From: a bacterium
GTDB taxonomy: Bacteria > Spirochaetota > Leptospiria > Leptospirales > Leptonemataceae
DNA: 64,000 nt
Direction: 5' to 3'
NCBI GenBank assembly: GCA_024742665.1
Contig: JANSYA010000001.1
Span: 570,425 to 634,424, forward strand
Made by a program: the position numbers and the translations under genes. Shown here in pieces: positions 5,595 to 63,399 of this stretch (the stretch's first letter is position 1; the number at the start of each line of letters is the position of its first letter). The notes under the pieces are model-generated. The model ran no database searches, had not been told where the DNA came from, and worked only from the letters and a program-made list of their open reading frames with translations.

Positions 5595-6080
5595 CTAGTA
5601 CAGCTTCTGCATCCAGCGGGTCAGGCCGGCTTTGAAAACCTGGAGCACTACGGTATAGCTGCCGTTTTCTTCGGGATGGACCAACACGACTTTGCCTTCG
5701 GCCTCGACGAGACGGCGAATCTCCTCGCGGCCGTAGTATCCGATGCGCGAAGAAATAACGCGTTCGCTTTGCATGAGTTCCGTCGCGCGCTGCTTGCCCG
5801 AGTCTTCCCCGAGAATGCGGGCTTCGTCCCGGTCGCCTGCCAGCACGGTGACGTGAACCTGGTAGCTGTTGCTGGAGATCAAACCCTCCCGGCGATAGTG
5901 AGCGGGTAAAGTCGAGTCCGTCGGCAGTCCGCCGCCGCCTTCCAGTTCTACGAAGGGCGGCCGATCGCTGCGGGAATCATTCGCCTGACCGCTCAGGCAC
6001 GCCGTGACATTCCCGATCACCAGCAGGCACAGGCAGGCCAGGCTCAGGTTGCGGATCTTTCTGATCTGTGCGGGCCCCAA
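5595..6080 (-). CDS. Hypothetical lipoprotein
   Basis: In-frame TTG at 6080 gives MGPAQIRKIRNLSLACLCLLVIGNVTAC, a signal peptide with lipobox-like VTAC. The ORF track extends the frame to 6272. No recognisable domain. Confidence 0.45.
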   Translation of the reverse strand: MGPAQIRKIRNLSLACLCLLVIGNVTACLSGQANDSRSDRPPFVELEGGGGLPTDSTLPAHYRREGLISSNSYQVHVTVLAGDRDEARILGEDSGKQRATELMQSERVISSRIGYYGREEIRRLVEAEGKVVLVHPEENGSYTVVLQVFKAGLTRWMQKLY

Positions 6081-6082
6081 CT

Positions 6083-6799
6083 TCAATATCCCGGCGTTTG
6101 CAGGAGCGGAGCCGTTGCGTCCCCGGGGGGGTTGGCTGGATTGTCTTCTGGCGACTCGCGTTGTATGCGCCACTGTCTCTGGTTCTCCGGTTGGAAGGTC
6201 AGGCGTACCGCACGGATTTCCGCCGGCAGATCCCGGTCGCCCGCGCTTTCGATGCGAAAGACGACCGAACAAGCGTCCCGGCTACGATTTTCCTGTAAAG
6301 CAATGAATCCCCGATTCAGCAGGGCGCGGAAATCGACTTCCGCTCGAATCAAATCCCGGGGCGTGAATGCAAAGGGATAGTCCCGATCGAAGGTCGCCGA
6401 CCCCAGCTCCAGTTCGGTGGGTTGATTCGAGATAAGATCCAGGCGGGTGTGCAGCATAACCCGCAGGCTGCGTTCACGGGCCACGCGTTCCGCGGCGCTC
6501 AGGCAGAGTCGGCGACCGCCCTCGGTGCCCCGGGAGGTTTCGTTTACGCCGGTCGATCCGATGGTTTGCAAAACGTGTTTTGAAAGAAAGCCTTCGTCCT
6601 GGAAATTGTAGGTGACGTGGCGTTTTTCCAGAAAGCGGGACGGCTGGCAGCCGGAGGCCGTCGTCGCTGTCATCGCGACCAAACAGACGAACGCGACGCG
6701 CGGAAGCACAGGACGAGACCCGGCGGCGGCTCGTCGATCGCGGTGTTGAGCGCTCGTCAGATTCTCTGCGGCGGCGGTCTCAAATTTCACGCGGAGCAT
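6083..6799 (-). CDS. Hypothetical lipoprotein
   Basis: 238-aa ORF with signal peptide …PRVAFVCLVAMTATTASGC (lipobox-like ASGC). The start may be internal. Sits tandem with the next lipoprotein between rumA-like and gltX. Confidence 0.45.
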   Translation of the reverse strand: MLRVKFETAAAENLTSAQHRDRRAAAGSRPVLPRVAFVCLVAMTATTASGCQPSRFLEKRHVTYNFQDEGFLSKHVLQTIGSTGVNETSRGTEGGRRLCLSAAERVARERSLRVMLHTRLDLISNQPTELELGSATFDRDYPFAFTPRDLIRAEVDFRALLNRGFIALQENRSRDACSVVFRIESAGDRDLPAEIRAVRLTFQPENQRQWRIQRESPEDNPANPPGDATAPLLQTPGY

Positions 6800-6816
6800 G
6801 CCGTCATATTGAGAGT

Positions 6817-8223
6817 TTAGCTTTCTCGCTCAAGAAGAATCAGCACTTCCAGGTGCGGCGTGCGCGGGAAAAAATCGAAGACTTCGACCGCCTGGGCAAC
6901 GTAGCCGCGCTCCAGGAATTTGCCCAGATCGCGGTTGAGAGTCGCGGGATTGCAGCTCGAGTACAGAATCGTGCCGACGCCGGCTTCGGCCAGCAGCGGG
7001 ATCTGCTTTTGATTCATGCCGGCCCGCGGGGGATTGATCAGGGCCAGGCCGGTACCGCGCGGCACCGGCACCGGCCGGCGATACAGGTCGGTGTTTTCGA
7101 AACGGCCTTCGTAGCCGCGGCGCTTGAAGTTGCCCCGGGCCGCCTTCAAGCCGGTCGGAGCATTATCGTAGCCCAGATAATCTCCAAGCAGATCGCGCAT
7201 ATTGCCGCCGAGCAGACCGCTGCCGCAGAAGAGTTCGAGCGTCGCCGGTCGAGCGCCGTCGCTTTCGGAATCTTTCGCGGCGGTCGGAGCGCCGCGGCTA
7301 TCGCGATCGCCAAGCATGCGCCGCGCGGCCTGCAGCCAATCGGAAAGTAAAAACTGATTCGCCTGGAAAAACGCGCCGCCCGGAATCGTCCAGGGCCGGC
7401 CGTCGACTTCGACGGGATCGTCCAGATCCAACTGCAATACGTGATGGCGCGGATTCGCCGAGCGCTTCGCCCGATCGTTGGCTTTCGTGTCGGCGCTGCC
7501 CGTCGTCGCGCTGGCGGCGCTTGCGCGTTCGTTCGGGCTTCCGTCGTCGCCCGTCGTCGCGGTTTCGTTCGCTGCGCTGTCGTCTTTTGCGCGAGCGTCA
7601 GAGTTTGCGTCGCTGGATGCGTTCGCTTCTGAGATCTCTTTTATTTCTTCAAGGATCGCCGCGTTCAAGTCGGGAGCGAGCTGGCGACAGCCCGCATCGC
7701 CGGGCAGTGGCACGATGCGATTGCTGTGCAGTTCGTAAAAGCCAGGCGGCGTGGTTTTCGTTTCACGATGCAGACGCGCCCGCGTGCGATAGCCGTTCGG
7801 CTCGCCGGAGTGCACCTGGAACTGATCGCGTTCGCGGGCGATGTCGATGCAGTTCTGCAAAGATTGAAACTCGGCGATCAGACGCAGCTTGAGTTCGACT
7901 TCGCTTTGATAATCGATGTGGCGAAACGAGCAGCCGCCGCAGCGGGGAAAGACCGCGCAGTCGGATTGCAATCGCTCCGGCGCCGGCTGCTCGACCTTTT
8001 CGACCAGTCCGAAGCAGTGGCGATTGTTCGAGCGGGTGACGCGGGCCTGCACGTCTTCGCCGGGCAGCGCGCCGTGTAAAAAGATGGGAAAGCCCTGTTT
8101 GTTTTCGCTTTCGGGACGGGGCGCGTCAAGATAGCCCAGGCAGAAACCCTGCTGGACCCACTTCTGCGCCCGGACGGACACAAGATCGCCGACTGCGGGG
8201 CCGGCGGATATTTCTTCGGACAT
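6817..8223 (-). CDS. rlmD: 23S rRNA (uracil-C5)-methyltransferase RlmD/RumA family (TRAM + Fe-S + SAM MTase)
   Basis: N-terminal TRAM-like region. Cys cluster FPRCGGCSFRH. MTase motifs LELFCGSGLLG and ILYSSCNPATL. A ~60-aa Ala/Ser/Asp-rich low-complexity insert is present. Confidence 0.75.
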   Translation of the reverse strand: MSEEISAGPAVGDLVSVRAQKWVQQGFCLGYLDAPRPESENKQGFPIFLHGALPGEDVQARVTRSNNRHCFGLVEKVEQPAPERLQSDCAVFPRCGGCSFRHIDYQSEVELKLRLIAEFQSLQNCIDIARERDQFQVHSGEPNGYRTRARLHRETKTTPPGFYELHSNRIVPLPGDAGCRQLAPDLNAAILEEIKEISEANASSDANSDARAKDDSAANETATTGDDGSPNERASAASATTGSADTKANDRAKRSANPRHHVLQLDLDDPVEVDGRPWTIPGGAFFQANQFLLSDWLQAARRMLGDRDSRGAPTAAKDSESDGARPATLELFCGSGLLGGNMRDLLGDYLGYDNAPTGLKAARGNFKRRGYEGRFENTDLYRRPVPVPRGTGLALINPPRAGMNQKQIPLLAEAGVGTILYSSCNPATLNRDLGKFLERGYVAQAVEVFDFFPRTPHLEVLILLERES

Positions 8224-40789: not shown

Positions 40790-42157
40790 ATGATTCGCAA
40801 ATATTTCATCGCCGCACTGCTCTGTATTGCGATCGTCTGGAACGGTCCCGCTTTCGCCTGGAGCGAACACGCCCTGGGCGCCTATCCGGCCCTGGGGGCT
40901 CTGCCCGAGATCGCGGATGCCGGCGATATTCGAGTCGAACGCTTCGAAGACTTTTTGCGCGCCGAGCAGGCCGGGCTGGTGGAAGTGCTCAAAGAGCAGG
41001 AGCAGTGGGCCCGGGAAAATATGTCGGCTTACGCTCCGCTGCCGGCCGAGTTCGAATTCCAGGTCGGTCCGGATGGAGAGAGCGATGCGGATCTGCGCCA
41101 GCGCTTCTTGCAGGCCCTGCGCGTACATCCCGGCGTGCGTCTGGAATATTACGTACAGCTTTTGCCCGGACGCAAGTGCGTGAATCGTCCGCGGCTTTCG
41201 CACTTGAAAGTGAGCGTCTTCAGTGAAGCCAACAGCGGTTCATTGGCGCGTCTTCGTTTCTGCGCTCTGCGCCCGGGCGGCGCGGTCAGCCCGCTGGAAG
41301 TGGCGGCGACGGCGATCGACGAACCGGACTTCGGCCACGACATCAATCTCTGGGAAGACAGTCCCTCGGAGTTCGGACCGACTTTTAATTTCGGGAATCT
41401 ATCTTTCGGCGATCCCAAGCTGTACTATGCGACCCAGGCGCCCTTTCATATGGGCTTTTATCATGAGTCCTGGCTGTTGTACGCGGTGGCCGGTTTTATC
41501 AAGCGGACCTATCCCGACTATCGCACGCGGCTCTATGAGCGACTGGCGCGTTACGCTTTCGAAACGGGCCACGACTACTGGGGCTACCGTTTTATGGGCT
41601 GGGGCCTGCACTACGTCACCGATCTCACGCAGCCTTATCACGCGACCGTCGTCCCCGGACTGAGCACGGCCTATATGCTCTGGATCAATTTCATCGCCAC
41701 GATCGGCTTTACCGAAGCGAAAGACGATGCGATCCAGCTGGTCTCGAACCGGCACACGGCGCTCGAAGAATTTCAAATGCAGATGATGCATCGCGCGTAT
41801 CGCAAAGAGCTGGAGGACCCGGAAGCCGCGCCGAATCCGGTGATCGCCGCCGCGACGCGTACGGAGCTCGACGCCGCGACTCCGCCCTACGACGATGATT
41901 ATTTTCGCGACGTGCTCAGCGCCGAGTCGCACGCCCAGGCCGACATGATCGACGAAGCGCTCTCGGCGTACATGCCCCCCGAATTCGTGAACGATCCCGA
42001 CTATCGCTTTTCCGCGGGACAGCGCGGCGAAGTTTATAATGAAGTCGCGAAAAACCGCAAAGACGCGGTCGAAAAAATGAACAAGGCTTTGATTCAGCTC
42101 TTCGAAAGATTTGGCGTGCATTCCCGGGCGTACGCGCGCTCGATTCTTGCGCGCTGA
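40790..42157 (+). CDS. Secreted protein, Zn-dependent phospholipase C / S1-P1 nuclease superfamily-like
   Basis: Signal peptide MIRKYFIAALLCIAIVWNGPAFA, then mature N-terminus WSEHA (the W1…H pattern that ligands Zn in PLC/P1). Later His/Asp clusters: DEPDFGHD, FHMGFYHESW, HDYWGYRFMGWGLHYVTDLTQPYHA. Confidence 0.4.
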   Translation: MIRKYFIAALLCIAIVWNGPAFAWSEHALGAYPALGALPEIADAGDIRVERFEDFLRAEQAGLVEVLKEQEQWARENMSAYAPLPAEFEFQVGPDGESDADLRQRFLQALRVHPGVRLEYYVQLLPGRKCVNRPRLSHLKVSVFSEANSGSLARLRFCALRPGGAVSPLEVAATAIDEPDFGHDINLWEDSPSEFGPTFNFGNLSFGDPKLYYATQAPFHMGFYHESWLLYAVAGFIKRTYPDYRTRLYERLARYAFETGHDYWGYRFMGWGLHYVTDLTQPYHATVVPGLSTAYMLWINFIATIGFTEAKDDAIQLVSNRHTALEEFQMQMMHRAYRKELEDPEAAPNPVIAAATRTELDAATPPYDDDYFRDVLSAESHAQADMIDEALSAYMPPEFVNDPDYRFSAGQRGEVYNEVAKNRKDAVEKMNKALIQLFERFGVHSRAYARSILAR

Positions 42158-42265: not shown

Positions 42266-43924
42266 ATGACTTCCATCTTTCGAAAACTACGCGAAGCCGG
42301 CCGCGGATTCAAAGATCGCCTGCGCGGCGCCGGCAGCGGCGATTCTTCGGAGACGCCGGCCGCCGCCGAAACCACGGATCCATCGCGCGCCGCGAGCGCG
42401 CCGCCGATTCCGCCGCAAGATCTGGAGCGCATGCAGCAGCTCGGTCGCCTGCGGGTCATCGAACCCTTCGAAGGCTGGCAGCACTTAGAGGCGGTTCGTA
42501 AAACCATGACCTCGATTGAAAAGGGCGTGGACCGCGCTCTGGACTGGGGCCGCGGAGTGCGCGACAATCTTAAAGAGCGCGACTCAGTGCGCAAAGCGGG
42601 CGCCTGGATATCCCGGCAAACTTCGAGCGCGAGTGCGGACGGCGAAAATGAGAGCGAAGGCGGGCTCGGCCAGGCCGCCAGAAAGGCCGTCGCTCCAGCC
42701 CGGGATTTCGCTCAGCGAAGCTACCGCGACGCGGGGGAGTGGCTGCGAACCACGGGCCTGGAGAACGTGCAGGAAACTCTGGAGTATCTGCTCGCGCATG
42801 ATCCGGCGGCCTGGGTGCGCAAGCGGGCCGCGAAGATTCTGAATCGTCCCGAACTGAAATCCGTGCGCGATTCCGAAGCGGCCTTCGCCGCCATGCGCGA
42901 ACTATCGCCGGAGGAACGCGAGCAACTGGTCGACGAGCTGTATCCCTATGATTTGCCGGGCTTTGCGCCGTACATGAAAGCCGTGGATCTTACGGTCAAC
43001 GTGGGACTCGGAGCGGTGGTCGCGACGAATCTGCCCGGCACCGGTTCGCTCGTACATCTGATTAATATGATCAAAACGATCTTTAAGATCGCCCACCGTC
43101 TGCATATGATGTCGACGATTCACGGCGCCGCGATTCGCGACCCGAACGCCTTGTTTGTAGTCAGCGCGAAAATTCTACAGTCCCTCCAGGGCTGGGAGGC
43201 GGCGGCCGATCACCGTCCCCTGGATTCGGCGGTGCTCGACGAGCTGTACGCCGCGGCCGGCGACGACGAAGCCCGGGCCCTGCCGGCCCTGTTGGGCGCG
43301 TCGCTCAAAAAGGATTTGTATATCAGCGTGCCCGGAGTCGGAACTGTAGGCGTCGGCAAGATCAGCCTGGACGACGCGCGTCTCGATCACTATATCCGCG
43401 CCTTCGTCAACAGCCACTTCGATCGTCGCCGGCTGGACGCGAGCTACGGTCCCGAGCGCGTCGCGGGGCGGATCGCGGAATTCGCGGCCGTGTACGCCGC
43501 CTTTCGCCGCCGGGATTATTTTCCAGAGATGCGTCGCCGCCTGAAAGCCCGGGATGAGGCCGAACACCGCCGTCAGGAAGAGCAGGAAAATCAGAAACGC
43601 GAGCGGGAGCAGCAGCAAGCGGAAAAACAGACGGCGGCAGTGGCCGGAAAAATGAAGGCGGCAGCGAGTCGCCTGTTTCGCAATATATCCCGCGGCTACG
43701 CGGCGATCGCGAAAGACGAATACTTCGAAGAGCTATCGGAGACTCTGGATCAATACGCCCGGGAAGTCTACAATCGACGCGCGGCCCGGCTGGATGCCGA
43801 TGGTGCGAAGCCGGCCGGCGGGAATGATGCGCGAGCTTCGCTACAGGCGAATGCAACGGAAGCCCGCTGGCAGGAAGGCGACGTGCTGATCGAGCGCGAA
43901 GTCGACGGCATGCTTGCGGGATAA
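42266..43924 (+). CDS. EcsC-family-like protein with long charged N- and C-terminal extensions
   Basis: Central segment NVGLGAVVATNLPGTGSLVHLINMIKTIFKIAHRLHMM resembles the conserved EcsC core. The C-terminus is a charged coiled-coil (…RRQEEQENQKREREQQQAEKQ…). Confidence 0.4.
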   Translation: MTSIFRKLREAGRGFKDRLRGAGSGDSSETPAAAETTDPSRAASAPPIPPQDLERMQQLGRLRVIEPFEGWQHLEAVRKTMTSIEKGVDRALDWGRGVRDNLKERDSVRKAGAWISRQTSSASADGENESEGGLGQAARKAVAPARDFAQRSYRDAGEWLRTTGLENVQETLEYLLAHDPAAWVRKRAAKILNRPELKSVRDSEAAFAAMRELSPEEREQLVDELYPYDLPGFAPYMKAVDLTVNVGLGAVVATNLPGTGSLVHLINMIKTIFKIAHRLHMMSTIHGAAIRDPNALFVVSAKILQSLQGWEAAADHRPLDSAVLDELYAAAGDDEARALPALLGASLKKDLYISVPGVGTVGVGKISLDDARLDHYIRAFVNSHFDRRRLDASYGPERVAGRIAEFAAVYAAFRRRDYFPEMRRRLKARDEAEHRRQEEQENQKREREQQQAEKQTAAVAGKMKAAASRLFRNISRGYAAIAKDEYFEELSETLDQYAREVYNRRAARLDADGAKPAGGNDARASLQANATEARWQEGDVLIEREVDGMLAG

Positions 43925-44063: not shown

Positions 44064-44306
44064 TCAGCTGCCGGCTTTCGCTACGTGTTCTTTGAACTGT
44101 CCGAGCAGCTCTTCGGTACCCGTGAACAGCAGTTCAATCTGATCTTTTTCGAGATCATAGATGACGGGCGTTTTCAGATAGCGAGTGAATTCTTCTTTGC
44201 CGAGATTCGCGGATTGATCGCGCAGAAAAGAATACCAGGTGGCCAGAATCACTTTCAAATGCGTGATTTCTTTTACGGGGAGAGAGATTGCTTTATCCTG
44301 TTCCAT
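44064..44306 (-). CDS. Small hypothetical protein (80 aa)
   Basis: Short ORF with a 4-bp gap to the upstream lipoprotein gene on the same strand. No motifs. Confidence 0.3.
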   Translation of the reverse strand: MEQDKAISLPVKEITHLKVILATWYSFLRDQSANLGKEEFTRYLKTPVIYDLEKDQIELLFTGTEELLGQFKEHVAKAGS

Positions 44307-44937: not shown

Positions 44938-45957
44938 TCAAAAATGATAGCCGACCGAAAACTGCCACTCGACCACGCCGGCCGGAAATTCGACCGGATT
45001 CTTCAGCACAGAAGCCTGGACCAGCCCGAGATTCGGTTCAAACACCGTCTGGGGCGCGACAAATGTATTTACGCTGGAAAGCGGGGTGATGCTGCCGTCG
45101 CGCAAATACCAGAACTCGCCGTCGCCGCCGTTGATCGTCCCGTTCCATTGCCCCAGATAGGTGTAGGTCGCGCGCAGGCCCGTGCGCAGGAATATCGATT
45201 CCGTGATATAGCGCCGCAATCCCAGCTCCAGCCTGGCGATGGTGCCCTGGTTCGAGATCTGGTTGATATTGTACGGCAAAAACTGGTTCGGCGAAAGCAG
45301 CTGGCCTTCCCCGCGCCAGCGCGCCGTTGGAACCAGGCCGAAACCGAATCCGCCTTCCCACTGCCACCGGCGCAGGGGCCGAAAGAAATCCATCTCGCCT
45401 ATATAGTGATAGGTGAACATGAAGTACGGAATATCGAAAGTAAAGCTCAGGTTGGTCAGGGCCAGGTCGCTGCGAAACTCCGTCAGCTGCTGCTCGGGCA
45501 CGACGAACTGTCCGATCGTAATGCCGAAGTATGAGGTCTCATCGTCGAAGATGCCCAGGCGCACGAAGGCTTCGACGGAATGGAAGTCCGAAAAGTCGTC
45601 GGTCTGCACCGTATTCAAAACATTGGGCGCGACCGAGGTGCGAAATTTACGCATGCCGCGCGTCAGACGATCTTCCGAGCGCTGGCCGGCCGCGACAGTC
45701 GCGCCGAGTTCGACCGGAATCGCGGACAGGGCTGCGGGCAGGGTCAGCAGGATCAGTCCGCCGGCCAGGAGCGATGTAAATAATACGGCGGCTGAATTCG
45801 ACCGGCTCCGATTGTGGCCGGCCGTCGAATGCGATTCCGGGGCAGCGCGAAAGCGACCCCGCGATTTTAATTGACAGGCCCCCGAGCAGCCACTTGCATT
45901 CTGTCCGGTTTTATATGAACGAACTGCTCTATTTTCCCGAATCTCTCGTGCTCGCAT
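44938..45957 (-). CDS. Putative outer-membrane beta-barrel protein
   Basis: Signal peptide AAVLFTSLLAGGLILLTLPAALSA; the true start is probably near 45800 rather than 45957. Alternating amphipathic strands. C-terminus …EWQFSVGYHF ends in Phe as in OMP beta-barrels. Confidence 0.45.
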   Translation of the reverse strand: MRAREIRENRAVRSYKTGQNASGCSGACQLKSRGRFRAAPESHSTAGHNRSRSNSAAVLFTSLLAGGLILLTLPAALSAIPVELGATVAAGQRSEDRLTRGMRKFRTSVAPNVLNTVQTDDFSDFHSVEAFVRLGIFDDETSYFGITIGQFVVPEQQLTEFRSDLALTNLSFTFDIPYFMFTYHYIGEMDFFRPLRRWQWEGGFGFGLVPTARWRGEGQLLSPNQFLPYNINQISNQGTIARLELGLRRYITESIFLRTGLRATYTYLGQWNGTINGGDGEFWYLRDGSITPLSSVNTFVAPQTVFEPNLGLVQASVLKNPVEFPAGVVEWQFSVGYHF

Positions 45958-48056
45958 TTCTGCTTCTGGTATTGCTGAGCGGGGTCTACCTGACCATCAA
46001 ATTCTTGCCCATTTTGCCGCTGGGATTTCTGTTCAAGTTCCCTTTAGTGGCGAAATCCCTGGTCGGTAATCTGGATCCCGGCCCCGCCGGCATGCGTCTG
46101 TCGCCGGGACGGGCGTGGGTTCTGGGATCGGCCTACGATTCGATCGTCGGCGCGGGGCTCGGCGCGGTCTTCGCTCACGCTGTGGCCGGACCCGGGGCGC
46201 TGGTCTGGATCATCGTCGTGAGCGCGCTGGTGGGATCGGTGACCTTCGCCATCGCGACAGTGGCGCGCACGGTCGCGGCGGGCGGAGTGACGCTGCAGCT
46301 GTACTATGCGTTAAGCGGCATTGCGATTCCGTTGGTCGTGCTGGTGTTGGTATCGCAGAAGCTCGCCTTCGCGTACGCCTTTCTGGGCGTCGGCTTGATT
46401 TTCTGGATCGGCCGCGGCGGCATTCCCCGGGCCGGGATATTCGCGCGCTATTCGTATGTGATCGCGGTGATAGCCCTGCTGGCCGGAGCGGTGCAGCTGG
46501 CTCTGGGCGTCGGCTTCGCGGTGCCGATCGCCATGAACCCGGCTGAGATCGCCCTGTTGGCGGTGCCCTCCGGGATGCCGGAGTTCTTTCGCATGGTTAC
46601 GGCGACGGGCGTCTTTTTTATTCTGAGCGGCGCGGGTTCGCTGCGCGTGCTGAGCTACGCGACTTTGAATGCGGCACCGGTTTCGCCCCTGGCATCTGCC
46701 CGGGTGGGGCTGGCCTTCGTTTTCGGGCCGCTGATTTCGGCGCTGATTGCCGTGGCGGTTTTCGCCGCCCTGGCTACCGGAGACGCGGTCGCGATTCTCT
46801 CGCGCCCGGAAGACTACTGGCTGCTGTGGACCGGCGTGATCGTCCTGAGTCTGTGCGGCCTGGTCGGTGCATACATGGGATCTGAAATCGGCGCGGAGTC
46901 GGAAGTGCGTCACGGCATCGCCGCCGCGCAGGATTCCGCCTACGGCTATCGTTTTACGAACCGGGGCCGCCTGCGGGCGATTCTGTGGAGCGCGGGCGCT
47001 TTCGTATGGCTGGGCGCTCTGTACCTGGGCGACGAAACGTCGGTGCTGCCGGCCTTAGTCCTGCCTCTGACGATCTACGTCACAATTGGTCTCGGAGCGG
47101 CAGCCGCCATCGCCGCGATTTTGTACGCCTATTTTCGTGCGAACTTCGCGACCCGGGCCCTGCGGGAGATCAAAAACGATCCGGACTGGCGGCCGCAGTT
47201 CGGCCGCGATTTACAGCTGCTGCTCTTTCATCTGCTGCCGACGAATCTGGTCAGCCGTCTCTTCGGCCACATCGCAGAGCTGAAACTTCCGAAGGCTCTG
47301 CTGCACCCATTGCTGCGCTGGTACGCGAAGACCTTTCGCGTGAATCTGGACGAGGCGGGCAAGCCCCTCGAAGAGTACGAAAGCCTGAATCTCTTTTTTA
47401 CCCGGGAGCTGAAGCCCGGACTGCGGCCCATTGACGGGCGCAAAGCCGGCGTGGTTTCCCCCGTCGACGGCGTGCTTTCGCGCTTCGGTCCGATCGAAAA
47501 CGGCACGTTGATCCAGGCGAAGGGCCTCGACTATCGATTGGAGGATCTGCTGGCGGGTTCCGAATTCGTCTCTCAATTTGAGGGCGGGCACTATGCGGTG
47601 ATCTATCTGAGCCCGCGGGACTACCATCGCATTCACTCTCAGCTTGGCGGCACGATTCTCGGCTACGACTATGTTCCCGGGCGACTGTTCCCGGTGAATC
47701 TGCTGGCGGTGAACGGCATTCGCGATCTCTTTCCGAAGAACGAACGCCTGACCACGTACATTCAAAACGAAGACGGCCTCACGGCGCTGGTCAAAGTCGG
47801 CGCCACGAACGTCGGCAAGATTACAGTCGTTTACGATTCCGCCGTCCAGGCCAACCGCTGGTTTCGTCAGGGCGCGCTGCATCGCTATCGCGATCACGAG
47901 CGGGTCAGCGTGGAGCGGGGCGGCGAACTCGCGCGCTTTGAAATGGGTTCGACGGTCGTGCTGCTCTTCGAACGCGGGCGCTTTCAATTCAGCGACCGCG
48001 TGCATGAAGATATGACCGTGCAGCTCGGGGAGTGGATCGGAACGATGCGGGGTTGA
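45894..48056 (+). CDS. psd: Fusion protein: N-terminal polytopic membrane domain (~430 aa, unassigned) + phosphatidylserine decarboxylase proenzyme
   Basis: C-terminal ~290 aa align with Psd: …RWYAKTFRVNLDEA…, YLSPRDYHRIHS, VNGIRDLFPKNERL and the self-cleavage site FEMGSTVVLLFE (GST motif). The N-terminal region is Ala/Gly/Leu/Val-rich with about 10 TM helices, and there is no stop between the two parts. Confidence 0.8.
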   Translation: MHSVRFYMNELLYFPESLVLAFLLLVLLSGVYLTIKFLPILPLGFLFKFPLVAKSLVGNLDPGPAGMRLSPGRAWVLGSAYDSIVGAGLGAVFAHAVAGPGALVWIIVVSALVGSVTFAIATVARTVAAGGVTLQLYYALSGIAIPLVVLVLVSQKLAFAYAFLGVGLIFWIGRGGIPRAGIFARYSYVIAVIALLAGAVQLALGVGFAVPIAMNPAEIALLAVPSGMPEFFRMVTATGVFFILSGAGSLRVLSYATLNAAPVSPLASARVGLAFVFGPLISALIAVAVFAALATGDAVAILSRPEDYWLLWTGVIVLSLCGLVGAYMGSEIGAESEVRHGIAAAQDSAYGYRFTNRGRLRAILWSAGAFVWLGALYLGDETSVLPALVLPLTIYVTIGLGAAAAIAAILYAYFRANFATRALREIKNDPDWRPQFGRDLQLLLFHLLPTNLVSRLFGHIAELKLPKALLHPLLRWYAKTFRVNLDEAGKPLEEYESLNLFFTRELKPGLRPIDGRKAGVVSPVDGVLSRFGPIENGTLIQAKGLDYRLEDLLAGSEFVSQFEGGHYAVIYLSPRDYHRIHSQLGGTILGYDYVPGRLFPVNLLAVNGIRDLFPKNERLTTYIQNEDGLTALVKVGATNVGKITVVYDSAVQANRWFRQGALHRYRDHERVSVERGGELARFEMGSTVVLLFERGRFQFSDRVHEDMTVQLGEWIGTMRG

Positions 48057-48221: not shown

Positions 48222-48340
<119 letters not shown>

Positions 48341-48808: not shown

Positions 48809-50068
48809 ATGAAAGGCGATAAAAAAAAGAGCGAAGTGTCCACGGTCCTGAAGTGGTTCTGTTCTGAAGGCTGTACTCTGGCTTCGCCGATGGATATGCT
48901 GAACGGTCTGATCCAGGAATTGAATCGTGACGGTTTTGAGATTCGACGTTCGCATATTTTCATCCGAACGATCCATCCGCAGATCACGGTCGAAGCCTAT
49001 CGATGGTATCGCGAAAGCCACGTTACGGCTCACGTCTTAAGAAAATATCAGTACGAAAGTTTGTGTCAGAAATATCCCGGCGGTCAGGTCATCCGGGATC
49101 TCATGTCGCACGGAGTGCTGGAGAGCGAGGGCTTTCTGAATAGCCCCGTCTGTCGGGTCGCGATGACCGGCGAAGAGTTTCGCAAACGAATCCGCCCCGG
49201 CGATGAAGGATCCGATTTTCCGATCTTCAAGCAGTTGATCGCGGACGGAGTGACCGACTATCTCGTTCTGCCGATGTCCTTCAGTCTGGGAGTATTCAAC
49301 GCGATTTTTTGGGATACAGACAAAGCCGACGGCTTTGCTCGTTCGGAAATCAATGTGTTGCGCGCATTGATGCCTATGTTGACGAAATATTTTGAAGCGC
49401 ATCTGGAACGACAGACCGGCAGGGTTTTGCTGGCCGCGTACTTAGGGCAGCGCACCAGCCAGAAGGTGCTGGAAGGCAGGATCAAACGAGGCGACTCGGA
49501 AGAGATCGAAGCCGCAATCTGGTTCTCGGATCTCCGGGTTTTTTCGAATCTATCGAACAGCTATGAAGCCCCGGAGATCATAGAGTGGCTGAATAAATAC
49601 TTCGAGATTGGGGCCGACGCGGTGGAAGCGAATAAGGGCGAAGTGCTGAAATTCGTCGGCGACGCGGTGCTCGCAATCTTCCCGATATCAAAAGGCAGCT
49701 CCCGCGAAACCGTATGCGAAGCGGTGCTGCAATCGGTCAGCCTGACGCACGATGCCATGGCGCGCTGGAATCGTGCGCGGGTACAAGAGCAGCGGCCGGA
49801 GCTTCGTCACGGCGTCGGTTTGAATATTGGATTGATTCAGTATGGAAATATCGGAGCATCGCGGCGGCTGGATTTCACCGCGATCGGTTCGGCTGTGAAC
49901 CTTGCTTCACGAATCGAAGGTATGTGCGCCTCTCTCGGGCGACAGACACTGGTCTCTGAAGAGTTCGCGTCGTTTTGCGCCTGCGATTTGGATTTCGCGG
50001 GCGAGCATACGATCAAAGGTTTTGCGGAGCCGCAAAAGATTTATACTGTGGCGAATTCACACTCTTGA
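48809..50068 (+). CDS. Class III adenylate/guanylate cyclase with N-terminal sensor-like domain
   Basis: C-terminal CHD domain motifs FSDLRVFS, KFVGDAVLAIFP, GVGLNIGLIQYGNIG, AIGSAVNLASRIEG. The N-terminal ~200 aa are unassigned. Confidence 0.75.
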   Translation: MKGDKKKSEVSTVLKWFCSEGCTLASPMDMLNGLIQELNRDGFEIRRSHIFIRTIHPQITVEAYRWYRESHVTAHVLRKYQYESLCQKYPGGQVIRDLMSHGVLESEGFLNSPVCRVAMTGEEFRKRIRPGDEGSDFPIFKQLIADGVTDYLVLPMSFSLGVFNAIFWDTDKADGFARSEINVLRALMPMLTKYFEAHLERQTGRVLLAAYLGQRTSQKVLEGRIKRGDSEEIEAAIWFSDLRVFSNLSNSYEAPEIIEWLNKYFEIGADAVEANKGEVLKFVGDAVLAIFPISKGSSRETVCEAVLQSVSLTHDAMARWNRARVQEQRPELRHGVGLNIGLIQYGNIGASRRLDFTAIGSAVNLASRIEGMCASLGRQTLVSEEFASFCACDLDFAGEHTIKGFAEPQKIYTVANSHS

Positions 50069-60652: not shown

Positions 60653-61253
60653 GAGCTTCGATATCGTTCGTGTTTTCGCCGTCCGGCGTGGAGGCGGCCC
60701 CGGCGTCAGCATCGGGCGGATTGAATTTCTGCATGGTCAGCACGAGATAGACGCGTCCGAGATATTTACGTTCACGACGATCGCGCAGAAAGAAAATCAT
60801 AATGTACTGCCGATAAATATTCGAGTCGATCGGAATCATCTTGTGATTCAGACTCTCCGGCGGAGTCAGCTCGACGTTGAAGCCGCCGTCCTGTAACTCG
60901 AATACGATATTCGAGGCCATCTGGTTGCTGAACTCTAAAATCACGGAGTCGGCCATGCCCTTCAGATTGGGATCGATCTGGTAGCGTTCCGCGATGCGCG
61001 GCAGCAGCTTCAGTTTCGTATAGCCGTCCATGCAGAAATAGATCTGGCCGTTTACGTCGCCTTCGAAGCCGATGCGCGAACAGCTTTCATAGCAAAGCCC
61101 TTCGTTCTTGGAAGGCCCGTAGGCTTCTTTGTCCGCGCTCAGAAACAGGTTCTCCTTAAAGAAGTCGGAGCAGACCCGATTGAGCGTCAGAATGATCTTT
61201 TCGTCGAGTAAGGGATCCATTTGAGTCGCGCGCGAATTAGTCCCGATTCGCAA
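60642..61253 (-). CDS. Hypothetical protein
   Basis: 203-aa ORF with no diagnostic motif. Overlaps its neighbours by a few codons on both sides. Confidence 0.3.
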   Translation of the reverse strand: MRIGTNSRATQMDPLLDEKIILTLNRVCSDFFKENLFLSADKEAYGPSKNEGLCYESCSRIGFEGDVNGQIYFCMDGYTKLKLLPRIAERYQIDPNLKGMADSVILEFSNQMASNIVFELQDGGFNVELTPPESLNHKMIPIDSNIYRQYIMIFFLRDRRERKYLGRVYLVLTMQKFNPPDADAGAASTPDGENTNDIEALSV

Positions 61254-63399
61254 ATTGACGGAAGACGACGGCGCCGCTCTGCACCGAGTCGTACTGGCGC
61301 AGGCGGTTGAGTCCGGTCTTCTCGCTTTGCTCTAAAGCCGTGCCGGCCTGGCGAAACCATTCGTAGGCCGAGGCGGGGCCCGCGCCGTCGTCGTTTAGCA
61401 GGGCGCAGCCCGCGTTGACGTCGACGGCTTCCTGCTCGCGCACGAATTCCAGAAATTCTCCCAGCCGGCGTTCCAGTTCTTCCAGCGGCAGCTCCGGTCC
61501 CAGGGCCGCGAAAACGTCGGCGGCGACGCGATACAAACGAAAGGGCGCGGCGAAAAAGGATCGCAGGCCCAGGCCGAAGAGGCGTCCGCTGTCGGGATTG
61601 CTGCGGCCGCGAAAGCGCAATAATATGAGCATGCGTCCGTTTTTAATTTCACGTTTCAGCGAGTATTCGTGCAGCAGATCGCGGTGAAAGCTGAGGCCGT
61701 TGCTTAAAGTACTTTCCGGATCACTTACGGCTTCTTCGAATACGCGCGCCTGGAACAGGCTTTCGCCGAATTTTCGAATCTCATACCAGGCCGCGCTGAG
61801 CGTTTCGGCGTTGTACATCGGCCGGTCCGATTTCATGCAGATCAATCCGAGAACTCCGGGCGTGCCCTGCGGTGCCTGACGACAGGGCACCGGAAAATAA
61901 ATTTCCCGGCCTTCTTCCATGACGACGTAGCGGCCGTCTTCCAGCTGCTTGACCAGGTGGTGCGCGGCCGGTTCCGAGCCGAGAGCGGCGCCGGAAATAA
62001 AAACGCTGCCGCTGCGGCGCAGGGTCGGATGAAAGCGCCCGCGCCGATTTCTTAAATACAGCGTCGCGGTTGCATGTGTCGCCAGGTCGGTCACCGCGGT
62101 CAAAAATCCCCGGGCAAAACTTTCGATATCCGCGATCTGTTCCGGATAACCCTGCTGCTCGTGAAAGCGATAATAACGAAAATCGAAAAGCGAGCTTTGA
62201 TTGTCGAAGCCGCGGCCCGCGCCCTTCGCTGCCGGCCAGAAGTCCAGATCTTCCGCCTGAATCTTCTGGCGTAGCGGTTGCATTACCGACTGAAAGCCCG
62301 GCAGGTTCCAGCGCTCCTGTTCGAATTCGTAGCGCGTCGCGTCGCGTTCCCCGGCTTCGGCCTCAAGGGCCGCGATCTTTTTGCGCAGGCTTTGTTCTTC
62401 GTGCGCATTTAGCGGAGCCTGGAAAACAAAATTCGCGGGATCGGAAAGAATCTGGAAGCGGCGTTCCCCCGCCGGTGAAAGCGACGGCGCGGGTTCCGTG
62501 GATTTTTCGACTCCCCCGGAAAAGTCGGATTCGTCGATGGCTTCCGACGGACTCTGGTGGAGCGCGTCTGCGGTTGTTTCGTCGTAGAGTTCCGCATCGT
62601 GTGATGCTTGCTCGTCGTCGTTCATTGACAGAGGACGATTCGGGTCCGGCCAGGTTTCGTCGGTGAATACAAGCCGTCGCGGACGCGATTTGTTTCGGGC
62701 GCGGCGCGCCAGAGGTTCCCGCAGGCTGAGCAAGACCATCGCCAGTCCCGCGATGATCGCCGCGCCGGCAATGTACGGAGCGGCCGCGTCGAAGCGCAAG
62801 TACGCCAGCCGCGATACGGAGTGGGGCACGCCGAAAAGATTGGAGAAGCGTCGCCCGCCCACATAGATCTGTTCATACGCGATCGTAATCGCGACTTCTT
62901 CGATTAGCTCCGGCCCTTTGAGGATTTGTACGGGAAAGGTTTTATAATAATAGCGGCCGAAGCTGCCCAATTCGGGCGCGCGGGCTCCGGCTTCGGCCAT
63001 CTCCCTGGCGATGATCGCTTCGCGCGCGACTCGATCTTCCAGTTCCTGAACGTTGCCGAAAGTGATGCGGCCCGCGTCGTACGAACGATGAATCGAAACG
63101 CCGCCCCGGGATTCAATGCGCAGATAAGCCAGCTCGTACTTATCCATCAGGGCCTGGCCGGCGGAGTACAGCCGACCGGCGTTGTTCTGGTAGTCCTGGA
63201 AGCTCTTACGAACGTCCATCAGCAGGCGGTCCGTCGGCGGATGGCGGTCCGCGGCGGGGCTGATGGGGAGATAGTTGGAGAGTGCGAGGCCCGGCGTGCC
63301 GTACATCGCCATCGCCCCGAATAGCACCAGCGCGCAGCCGCCGGCCAGGCCGGTGGCTATCAGAGCTGTGCGCAGTCGTTTGCGTGTGCCTGTCTTCAC
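61237..63399 (-). CDS. Membrane-anchored hypothetical signalling protein (two TM segments; C-terminal degenerate GGDEF-like region?)
   Basis: 720 aa. N-terminal TM, periplasmic-like ~200 aa, second TM, acidic linker, then a C-terminal ~350 aa in which …MLILLRFRGRSN… occupies the position of a GGDEF motif. Weak. Confidence 0.35.
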   Translation of the reverse strand: MKTGTRKRLRTALIATGLAGGCALVLFGAMAMYGTPGLALSNYLPISPAADRHPPTDRLLMDVRKSFQDYQNNAGRLYSAGQALMDKYELAYLRIESRGGVSIHRSYDAGRITFGNVQELEDRVAREAIIAREMAEAGARAPELGSFGRYYYKTFPVQILKGPELIEEVAITIAYEQIYVGGRRFSNLFGVPHSVSRLAYLRFDAAAPYIAGAAIIAGLAMVLLSLREPLARRARNKSRPRRLVFTDETWPDPNRPLSMNDDEQASHDAELYDETTADALHQSPSEAIDESDFSGGVEKSTEPAPSLSPAGERRFQILSDPANFVFQAPLNAHEEQSLRKKIAALEAEAGERDATRYEFEQERWNLPGFQSVMQPLRQKIQAEDLDFWPAAKGAGRGFDNQSSLFDFRYYRFHEQQGYPEQIADIESFARGFLTAVTDLATHATATLYLRNRRGRFHPTLRRSGSVFISGAALGSEPAAHHLVKQLEDGRYVVMEEGREIYFPVPCRQAPQGTPGVLGLICMKSDRPMYNAETLSAAWYEIRKFGESLFQARVFEEAVSDPESTLSNGLSFHRDLLHEYSLKREIKNGRMLILLRFRGRSNPDSGRLFGLGLRSFFAAPFRLYRVAADVFAALGPELPLEELERRLGEFLEFVREQEAVDVNAGCALLNDDGAGPASAYEWFRQAGTALEQSEKTGLNRLRQYDSVQSGAVVFRQFANRD

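Follow-up and report, generated by a model that had tools for sequence, protein, structure and literature searches.

The window analysed here is a stretch of 64,000 nucleotides (64 kb) from contig JANSYA010000001.1 (assembly GCA_024742665.1, positions 570,425 to 634,424 of the forward strand) of a bacterium of the family Leptonemataceae, within the order Leptospirales, and the gene considered is its phosphatidylserine decarboxylase (Psd) gene, psd. The gene lies in one unbroken open reading frame (ORF), 45894..48056 (+), which in the ORF listing amounts to 720 aa counted from TTG. This in-frame TTG at 45894 is an alternative start, while the ATG at 45915 is the probable start of the fused coding sequence (CDS). 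The complete CDS of the fusion proenzyme is then 45915..48056 (+), 713 aa plus stop, as in the identical NCBI protein P0001 (713 aa), and the orthologues P0002-P0004 begin at the same Met. Note that residue numbers throughout refer to the 713-aa form. The single ORF bears out the statement of the initial annotation that a Psd is joined here, without an intervening stop, to a large polytopic domain. We show below that this N-terminal domain is a very divergent descendant of the alanine/glycine:cation symporters (AGCS, TC 2.A.25, LeuT fold).

Could the long ORF be an artefact, that is, two neighbouring genes merged by a sequencing or assembly error near 47150-47250? The window stems from a metagenome-assembled genome (MAG), and one relative assembly (L003) has a 1-nt indel in its psd fusion gene, both of which would favour such an error. 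However, that indel lies within the Psd core, away from the junction, and no stop or frame change separates the N-terminal domain from the Psd half in the window. The fused ORF is repeated in three other independent assemblies (P0002-P0004, 707-723 aa, with N-terminal domains 62-79% identical), the syntenic locus in a 6.3-Mb genome has the same continuous fused frame, and so do P0011 and about 100 clusters from the Leptospirales, some of them from complete genomes of cultured Leptospira. In addition, the junction sequence, RD(L/F)xLLL..LP.N..S, is common to the compared fusions. A frameshift or stop around 47150-47250, for which the initial annotation had proposed a check, is therefore excluded as a sequencing error, since the same fused ORF is found in four independent assemblies and in the syntenic 6.3-Mb genome. 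The artefact is refuted by the conserved fused frame, and we give it practically no credence.

As for the L003 locus itself (6001-8168 of the Leptospirales MAG CBDEUV010000002), the psd match there spans 2168 nt, a length not divisible by 3, and its ORF is interrupted at codon 628, within the Psd core. Since the locus L001 of the same species is intact, the interruption can most probably be put down to a 1-nt assembly error in this MAG. Two antisense ORFs in the window gene, 46311-46913 and 47211-48005, are regarded as shadows of the GC-rich coding strand.

By all the sequence-level defining features that were tested, the C-terminal half is shown to be a complete type-I Psd. The family hidden Markov models (HMMs) place a canonical Psd at residues ~436-713, with 193.6 bits (E 3.7e-57) against a cut-off of 22 for PF02666 and 205.9 bits against a cut-off of 111.75 for TIGR00163. 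The E. coli Psd (7CNW, 6L06) matches this half in sequence at E 2e-39, and a Foldseek search of the C-terminal half against the PDB returned E. coli PSD 7CNX at E 1.7e-9. The catalytic core, delimited by both family models, by 7CNW in sequence and by 7CNX in fold, comprises residues 474-713 (47334..48053 (+)). Within it, Asp518 (47466..47468 (+)), in VSPVDG aligned to VMPADG, corresponds to D90 of the E. coli autocleavage set; Asp569-Tyr570-His571 (47619..47627 (+)), in YLSPRDYHRIH aligned to YLSPRDYHRVH, contains the equivalents of D142 and H144; and Gly678-Ser679 (47946..47951 (+)), in the FEMGST motif at 47937-47957, is aligned to G253-S254 and is the predicted self-cleavage site. All three are invariant in 47 fusions, and the roles of D90, D142 and H144 in autocleavage or catalysis are taken from the work on the E. 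coli enzyme (PMC7952604). The canonical Psd with its self-cleavage motif, as first read from the sequence, is thus confirmed by PF02666, by TIGR00163 and by the motif itself.

Ahead of the core, the AlphaFold2 (AF2) model contains three amphipathic helices at residues 429-473 (429-440, 443-455 and 460-473; 47199..47333 (+)), which correspond to helices H1-H3, by which E. coli Psd associates with the membrane; phmmer aligned this stretch to the E. coli protein from residue 7 on. The E. coli enzyme is monotopic and is held to the membrane by three such helices, which also contact acyl chains (PMC7952604). Consequently, the supposition that bacterial Psds normally have a single N-terminal anchor does not hold for E. 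coli Psd, where the amphipathic helices take the place of a transmembrane (TM) helix. Bacterial Psd works at the cytoplasmic face of the membrane (PMC7952604). Between the last TM helix, TM11, and the Psd lies a short, putatively cytoplasmic linker of 7 residues (422-428; 47178..47198 (+)), defined by the secondary structure of the AF2 model and by the shared junction sequence. Regex searches of the whole 64-kb window found no second Psd (G-S-T) motif besides psd itself, and no match to the CDP-alcohol phosphatidyltransferase (pssA) or HKD motifs; the absence of the phosphatidyltransferase motif had been correctly noted before.

The N-terminal domain comprises residues 1-421 (45915..47177 (+)), with 11 TM helices, and its assignment as AGCS-derived comes from hhalign, from the Foldseek match to 6CSE and from AF2. 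The first ~425 residues are strongly hydrophobic. The size and polytopic, hydrophobic character given in the initial annotation therefore stand, while its estimate of ~10 TM helices gives way to the 11 of the AF2 model. The same annotation held the domain to be unassignable, and for direct searches this is true. The AGCS models PF01235 and TIGR00835 (Pfam, NCBIfam) gave no match to residues 1-430 at E <= 1, and nothing was found by a PDB profile search with these residues; the lone direct-search match was a lipoprotein at E 0.84, which was taken as chance.

The AGCS origin was reached through intermediates. An exhaustive profile search (hmmsearch), with the four N-terminal domains of the window family as query and 1.84 billion (1.84e9) representative proteins as target, matched just 7 proteins, all of them Psd fusions. 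Six of these, proteins of 576-748 aa, lie outside the window's own cluster and match residues 1-117 only; their N-terminal domains match PF01235 at E 1e-10 to 2.5e-40, and one of them matches the AgcS structure 6CSE at E 2.3e-25. When the window family was aligned by hhalign to 27 recognisable fusion N-terminal domains together with AgcS, the probability was 99.2% (E 6.6e-20) over 404 columns, covering residues 1-433. The AF2 model used is that from a 47-sequence alignment (pLDDT 74, pTM 0.60; a four-sequence run gave pLDDT 32). It has 11 TM helices with a broken TM7, followed by the three amphipathic helices and the Psd beta core. This agrees with the AGCS-type 11-TM LeuT fold with unwound TM2 and TM7, in a model built from an alignment rich in AGCS sequences. 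Foldseek matched the N-terminal half of this model to AgcS 6CSE in the PDB (E 1.1e-4, probability 1.00, TM-score 0.62 normalised to AgcS, ~475 columns); AdiC, BasC, CodB and other LeuT/APC-fold carriers came next. The HMM and structure searches that had been proposed were thus empty for direct HMMs and gave AGCS by the transitive search and the fold match. We are highly confident of the two domain identities, the AGCS-derived N-terminal domain and the Psd. Among the three guesses made at first, a fused upstream gene is the closest, an AGCS gene having been fused to psd early in the Leptospirales, and nothing was found in support of a flippase-like partner or a substrate channel.

AgcS has 11 TM helices, a periplasmic N-terminus and a cytoplasmic C-terminus (bioRxiv 10.1101/293811). 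Under this topology the window domain has 16 Lys and Arg residues in cytoplasmic loops versus 2 outside. The window protein is accordingly modelled as N-out with TM11 predicted to end in the cytoplasm, and such an orientation of the N-terminal domain would put the Psd module on the cytoplasmic leaflet.

The distribution of the fusion was explored in a scan of GTDB species representatives, in which each Psd ORF was extended upstream. Among the best 80 loci, Leptospirales genomes, among them many of cultured Leptospira as well as MAGs of Leptospiraceae, Leptonemataceae and 'Spirochaetia', have a Psd ORF of 712-815 aa. In every other phylum, and in some other Spirochaetota/Leptospirales MAGs, it measures 275-313 aa, apart from a few apparent upstream extensions. 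A search with a 10-fusion alignment (word index) gave 6 proteins, and how wide the family is became visible with a single Leptospira query, the L. ilyithenensis protein, which found 96 clusters, nearly all with PF01235 and PF02666. The fusion spans saprophytic, intermediate and pathogenic Leptospira, for example L. interrogans, L. noguchii, L. weilii, L. kirschneri, L. fainei and L. wolffii. The closest named relatives of the window protein are Leptospirales MAGs.

NCBI records name the L. interrogans protein (P0068) 'sodium:alanine symporter family/phosphatidylserine decarboxylase' and the L. ryugenii protein (P0091) 'bifunctional phosphatidylserine decarboxylase and sodium/alanine symporter'. 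Since both halves are already named there, the fusion architecture is known to databases, and the window protein, whose identical record P0001 reads 'MAG: archaetidylserine decarboxylase [bacterium]', belongs to a Leptospirales AGCS-Psd fusion already visible in database annotation. The fusion is thus no peculiarity of this genome but is carried by Leptospira across the genus, in some cases under the label 'bifunctional'. In the literature, we found no paper discussing an AGCS-Psd fusion.

Two genes divergent from psd tie these loci together. The first encodes an 80-aa protein without a Pfam family (44064-44306 (-)), which is 45-91% identical across fused loci. The second encodes an outer-membrane-protein-like product of ~270-340 aa, also without a Pfam family (44938-45957 (-)). 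Its long ORF overlaps the psd start, because the ORF is merely extended upstream; the gene called in L001 has 273 aa. The 80-aa gene and the 339-aa gene adjoin psd in the fused Leptospirales loci that retain their upstream flank, including those of cultured Leptospira, and by these shared upstream neighbours the Leptospirales AGCS-Psd fusion is an orthologous locus.

One locus with the same two divergent genes lacks the fusion. In an uncultured Leptospiraceae MAG (L031, CAZPFB010000035), positions 5968-6837 encode an unfused Psd of 289 aa with no remnant of the N-terminal domain; ~150 bp of intergenic DNA occupy the place of the transporter domain. Compared with the window, L031 is closer than Leptospira in both the 80-aa neighbour (67% versus 48% identity) and the Psd (51% versus 46-47%). 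Given these identities and the shared synteny, a secondary loss is parsimonious, and its short Psd is probably due to deletion of the N-terminal domain. A second apparent exception, L032, was rejected, because there the fusion is cut by the contig end. The pre-fusion state was also sought, and no AGCS gene was found within 6 kb of the unfused psd in ~50 unfused loci. The idea that relatives would carry the N-terminal domain as a separate gene thus fails, with no adjacent AGCS gene at these loci and no such domain at all in L031.

Does the domain retain a sodium:alanine symporter's site? Residues 17-420 of AgcS were rebuilt from the HMMER alignment, and all published residue numbers were found to fit. 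The functional residues of AgcS were then mapped onto the fusions, with high confidence for TM2 and TM7a and low to moderate confidence for TM4, TM8 and TM9. Among the Na+ ligands, N80 is S or A in the Leptospira-type fusions and A80 in the window family (alignment confidence high), S274 is kept in 19 of the 27 Leptospira-type sequences and is L237 in the window family (high), and D308 is E in 23/27 and S275 in the window family (moderate). The remaining four positions were aligned with low to moderate confidence. Q170, which contacts the substrate carboxylate, is P in the Leptospira-type and P139 in the window family. E276, which contacts the substrate amine, is kept in 25/27 and replaced by G239. 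T366, of the binding pocket and extracellular gate, is S in 21/27 and G315 in the window family. The gate residue W370 is kept in all 27 and replaced by A319. That is, none of the seven mapped Na+, substrate and gate residues survives in the window family, which is also ~40 residues shorter around TM4-TM5. The window domain should not be filed as a sodium:alanine symporter, because it fails the AGCS HMMs and is without the Na+ and substrate residues.

Two core helices illustrate the remodelling. TM2 (residues 64-91; 46104..46187 (+)) corresponds to AgcS TM2 and LeuT TM1, and has Y74-D75-S76 and A80 in place of A74-T75-I76 and N80. TM7a and TM7b (residues 221-238 and 243-253; 46575..46673 (+)), with a GAGS hinge, are broken at 239-242 as in the unwound TM7 of AgcS, and carry the replacements S274 to L and E276 to G. 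The codon of Asp75, in the unwound part of TM2, is at 46137-46139; the acid is kept in the window family, P0011 and L010, and the position is T75 in AgcS and Ser in the Leptospira-type fusions. An Asp in TM2 recalls the TM1 Asp of monoamine transporters.

The fusions can be ranked by their resemblance to AGCS models. Against the TIGR00835 (agcS) cut-off of 272.65 bits, P0103, a 777-aa fusion from a 'Spirochaetia bacterium' MAG, scores 347.9 bits, the L. interrogans protein P0068 scores 210.8 bits and P0105 scores 76 bits. PF01235 matches L028 at E 3e-56, L. ilyithenensis L012 at E 1.8e-48 and L010 at E 4e-4, and neither model matches P0011 or the window protein. In P0103, Q170, S274, E276, D308, T366 and W370 are retained, and N80 is S. 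P0103 is probably the ancestral state of the fusion, and the ancestor was probably bifunctional, since the site of P0103 is almost canonical. Judged by sequence comparison, this is a decay series, which runs from a near-canonical carrier (P0103) through a partly altered one (Leptospira) and one that is unrecognisable yet conserved (the window) to absence of the domain (L031).

The partner family being one of amino-acid carriers, it might be asked whether the transporter half imports a soluble amino acid for the Psd-like half to decarboxylate, in the manner of transporter-plus-decarboxylase systems, in place of phosphatidylserine (PS). PsiD, an L-tryptophan decarboxylase of the Psd fold that acts on the free amino acid, is indeed among the PDB matches of the window protein. 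However, that match is weak (E 6e-5 versus 2e-39 for E. coli Psd), the equivalog cut-off for Psd is passed, and the three helices that contact membrane and acyl chains are kept; serine and phosphoserine are not substrates of E. coli Psd (PMC7952604). Moreover, no second psd locus was seen for any fusion-bearing genome among the best 80 loci of the GTDB scan, and the transporter site is destroyed in the window protein. A soluble substrate for the Psd half is, on this evidence, most improbable.

We consider it likely that the window encodes a genuine Psd proenzyme, in a fused form typical of its order, which is anchored by an ex-transporter that no longer moves alanine with Na+. The topology, cleavage, activity and anchor role that we infer are as follows. 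The AGCS-derived 11-TM domain would insert N-out and C-in, and would be connected by the 7-residue linker to the three amphipathic helices and then the catalytic core, which would lie on the cytoplasmic leaflet. Self-cleavage between G678 and S679 would yield a polytopic beta chain of 678 aa and an alpha chain of 35 aa, with Ser679 converted to the pyruvoyl group, and the Psd module would turn PS into phosphatidylethanolamine (PE), as in E. coli (PMC7952604). The ex-transporter would then hold the Psd beta chain permanently, as an integral-membrane anchor or scaffold, with no alanine or glycine carried with Na+, and it may contain a remodelled central pocket. An anchor or scaffold is preferred to a carrier because the N-terminal domain is without the Na+- and alanine-binding residues of AgcS. 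The explanation is further favoured by the decay series, by the dispensability of the domain seen in L031, by the lack of a second Psd motif and of a pssA motif in the window, and by the lack of a second psd locus for the fusion-bearing genomes among the best 80 loci.

Several observations weigh against this explanation or against parts of it. The residues of TM4, TM8 and TM9 were mapped on columns of low confidence (hhalign confidence 2-5). The fold of the AF2 model is partly inherited from an alignment dominated by recognisable AGCS fusions; to that extent, fold and sequence do not count as two fully independent lines of evidence. The neighbour-joining tree of the Psd domain is poorly resolved, with bootstrap values of 19-29% for any placement of L031, and the secondary loss is therefore argued from synteny and pairwise identities. 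Finally, the conservation pattern within the domain is more what one would expect of a central site that still functions than of an inert anchor. In the four-member family, invariant positions peak in the LeuT core, with 93% in TM2 as against 78% in the Psd core, and make up 80% of TM1, 73% of TM7b and 70% of TM4. The invariant polar residues include Y74, D75, S76, H88, Q128, Y130 and Y131, and further S238, R244, N252, S323, E324 and E328. Asp75 in the unwound TM2 is conserved across the divergent subclade, although these statistics are thin, as the subclade consists of just 4-6 sequences.

The N-terminal domain is still under purifying selection. In a Nei-Gojobori comparison of the window gene with its L001 orthologue, dN/dS is 0.17 for the N-terminal domain and 0.09 for the Psd half, so that the domain is not drifting. 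Together with the concentration of conservation and of invariant polar residues on the LeuT core helices, this selection suits an active transporter or ligand receptor of new specificity, for example for a carboxylate-free amine such as ethanolamine, or for serine, coupled to Psd or regulating it. An Asp has been gained in the unwound TM2 while the carboxylate- and Na+-binding residues have been lost, the broken TM7 and the glycine-rich TM2 are still present, E276, W370 and S274 persist in the Leptospira-type fusions, where D308 has become E, and the ancestor was probably bifunctional, as the almost canonical site of P0103 indicates. However, all seven mapped ligand and gate residues of AgcS are replaced in the window family, its TM4-TM5 region is ~40 residues shorter, and the syntenic relative L031 has dropped the domain altogether. 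Coupled transport has no obvious metabolic logic either, because Psd neither consumes nor releases a soluble amino acid or amine, and the sequence names no ligand. We regard an active N-terminal domain of this kind as unlikely, though it is the main rival.

The loss of small-molecule binding residues from a core that is still conserved might instead mean that the LeuT-fold domain handles lipid, by delivering the PS head group or as a flippase, scramblase or channel for PE or PS. The domain is permanently joined to a lipid-modifying enzyme, in a fusion conserved throughout an order, and bacterial PE flipping requires dedicated proteins, such as the DedA protein PetA, according to an excerpt of PMC10193950. 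Nevertheless, L031 manages without the domain, and early fusions such as P0103 resemble ordinary amino-acid carriers. We know of no LeuT-fold or AGCS protein that moves lipids, which also counts against lipid handling, and we judge it very unlikely. Somewhat less remote, but still with a small chance of being right, is a remodelled pocket for an amine head group, be it free ethanolamine or a serine or ethanolamine moiety in PS or PE, which would couple PE synthesis to head-group sensing or lipid translocation. The candidate pocket residues are Asp75, Y74/S76/H88, Q128/Y130/Y131 and S323/E324/E328, the carboxylate and Na+ ligands all being lost.

The neighbours of psd in the window encode a member of the MFS, an adenylate cyclase, MarR, a thiolase and proteins of unknown function, none of which is lipid-related. 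A lone 5S rRNA gene (RF00001, 91.9 bits) is located at 48223-48339 (-), 167 nt past the psd stop and convergent with psd. It is the sole Rfam match in the 64-kb window, from which 16S and 23S rRNA genes are absent. Unlinked, scattered rRNA genes are known for Leptospira and its group, and a lone 5S gene fits this. Further downstream, the gene at 48809-50068 (+) codes for an adenylate/guanylate cyclase of class III (PF00211, E 5e-12), of which the N-terminal ~230 aa are unassigned. Synteny of this gene is limited to the close relatives L001 and L003. Three large ORFs are without a Pfam family: 61237-63399 (-) with 720 aa, 40790-42157 (+) with 455 aa and 42266-43924 (+) with 552 aa. The 552-aa ORF is kept beside the psd locus in L001 and L004, and a 455-aa gene is present at the corresponding position in L001. 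A scan for promoters and terminators gave nothing beyond the shuffled expectation.

PE is reported as one of the major lipids of leptospiral membranes. Numerous bacterial pathogens have Psd as an essential enzyme (PMC7952604). Three things are new here: the assignment of a domain that standard annotation has missed; the transporter site that is stripped in the window lineage while the fold is conserved; and the decay series with a probable loss of the domain at its end. No established concept is changed by these results. However, the series could serve as a comparison set for the question of whether the transporter half of leptospiral Psd does more than anchor, and the window domain is a clean case of a pseudo-transporter that family HMMs miss, for which pipelines say just 'archaetidylserine decarboxylase'. 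If the head-group-binding pocket were true, it would give the LeuT fold a new function and a bacterial Psd a built-in partner.

Among known systems, the AGCS-Psd fusions of Leptospira are most directly comparable with the window protein. They have the same domain order, the same junction, similar lengths (713-751 aa) and the same divergent upstream neighbours. The Psd halves are 46-47% identical, and the N-terminal domains are homologous over their full length by the hhalign comparison. However, the Leptospira domains match PF01235 (E 1e-48) and TIGR00835 (~210 bits) and still have S274, E276 and W370, D308 having become E, whereas the window domain matches neither model and has lost these residues; the Leptospira domains also have the ~40 residues around TM4-TM5 that the window domain has not. 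AgcS of Methanococcus maripaludis, a Na+/alanine symporter (6CSE, 6CSF), shares with the window domain the 11 TM helices, the LeuT fold, the broken core helices and the N-out/C-in arrangement. The two are only ~18% identical, the Na+ ligands N80, S274 and D308 as well as Q170, E276, T366 and W370 are all replaced in the window protein, and the window domain covalently precedes an enzyme.

The Psd half resembles E. coli Psd (7CNW, 6L06) in its catalytic fold, in the equivalents of D90 and of D142-H144-S254, in the G-S motif and in the three amphipathic helices. The E. coli protein is monotopic, with 322 aa and no TM helix, whereas the beta chain of the window protein would have 11 TM helices ahead of the amphipathic ones. 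In this respect the window protein is similar to the mitochondrial Psd1 of yeast and mammals, in which Psd is also held by an N-terminal integral membrane segment. The anchor of Psd1 is a single TM helix without transporter ancestry, and the enzyme faces the intermembrane space. Psd1 is an integral inner-membrane protein, as stated in an excerpt of PMC13425903, and the window protein differs from it in its anchor, which would be an entire ex-transporter, and in the predicted cytoplasmic location of the enzyme.

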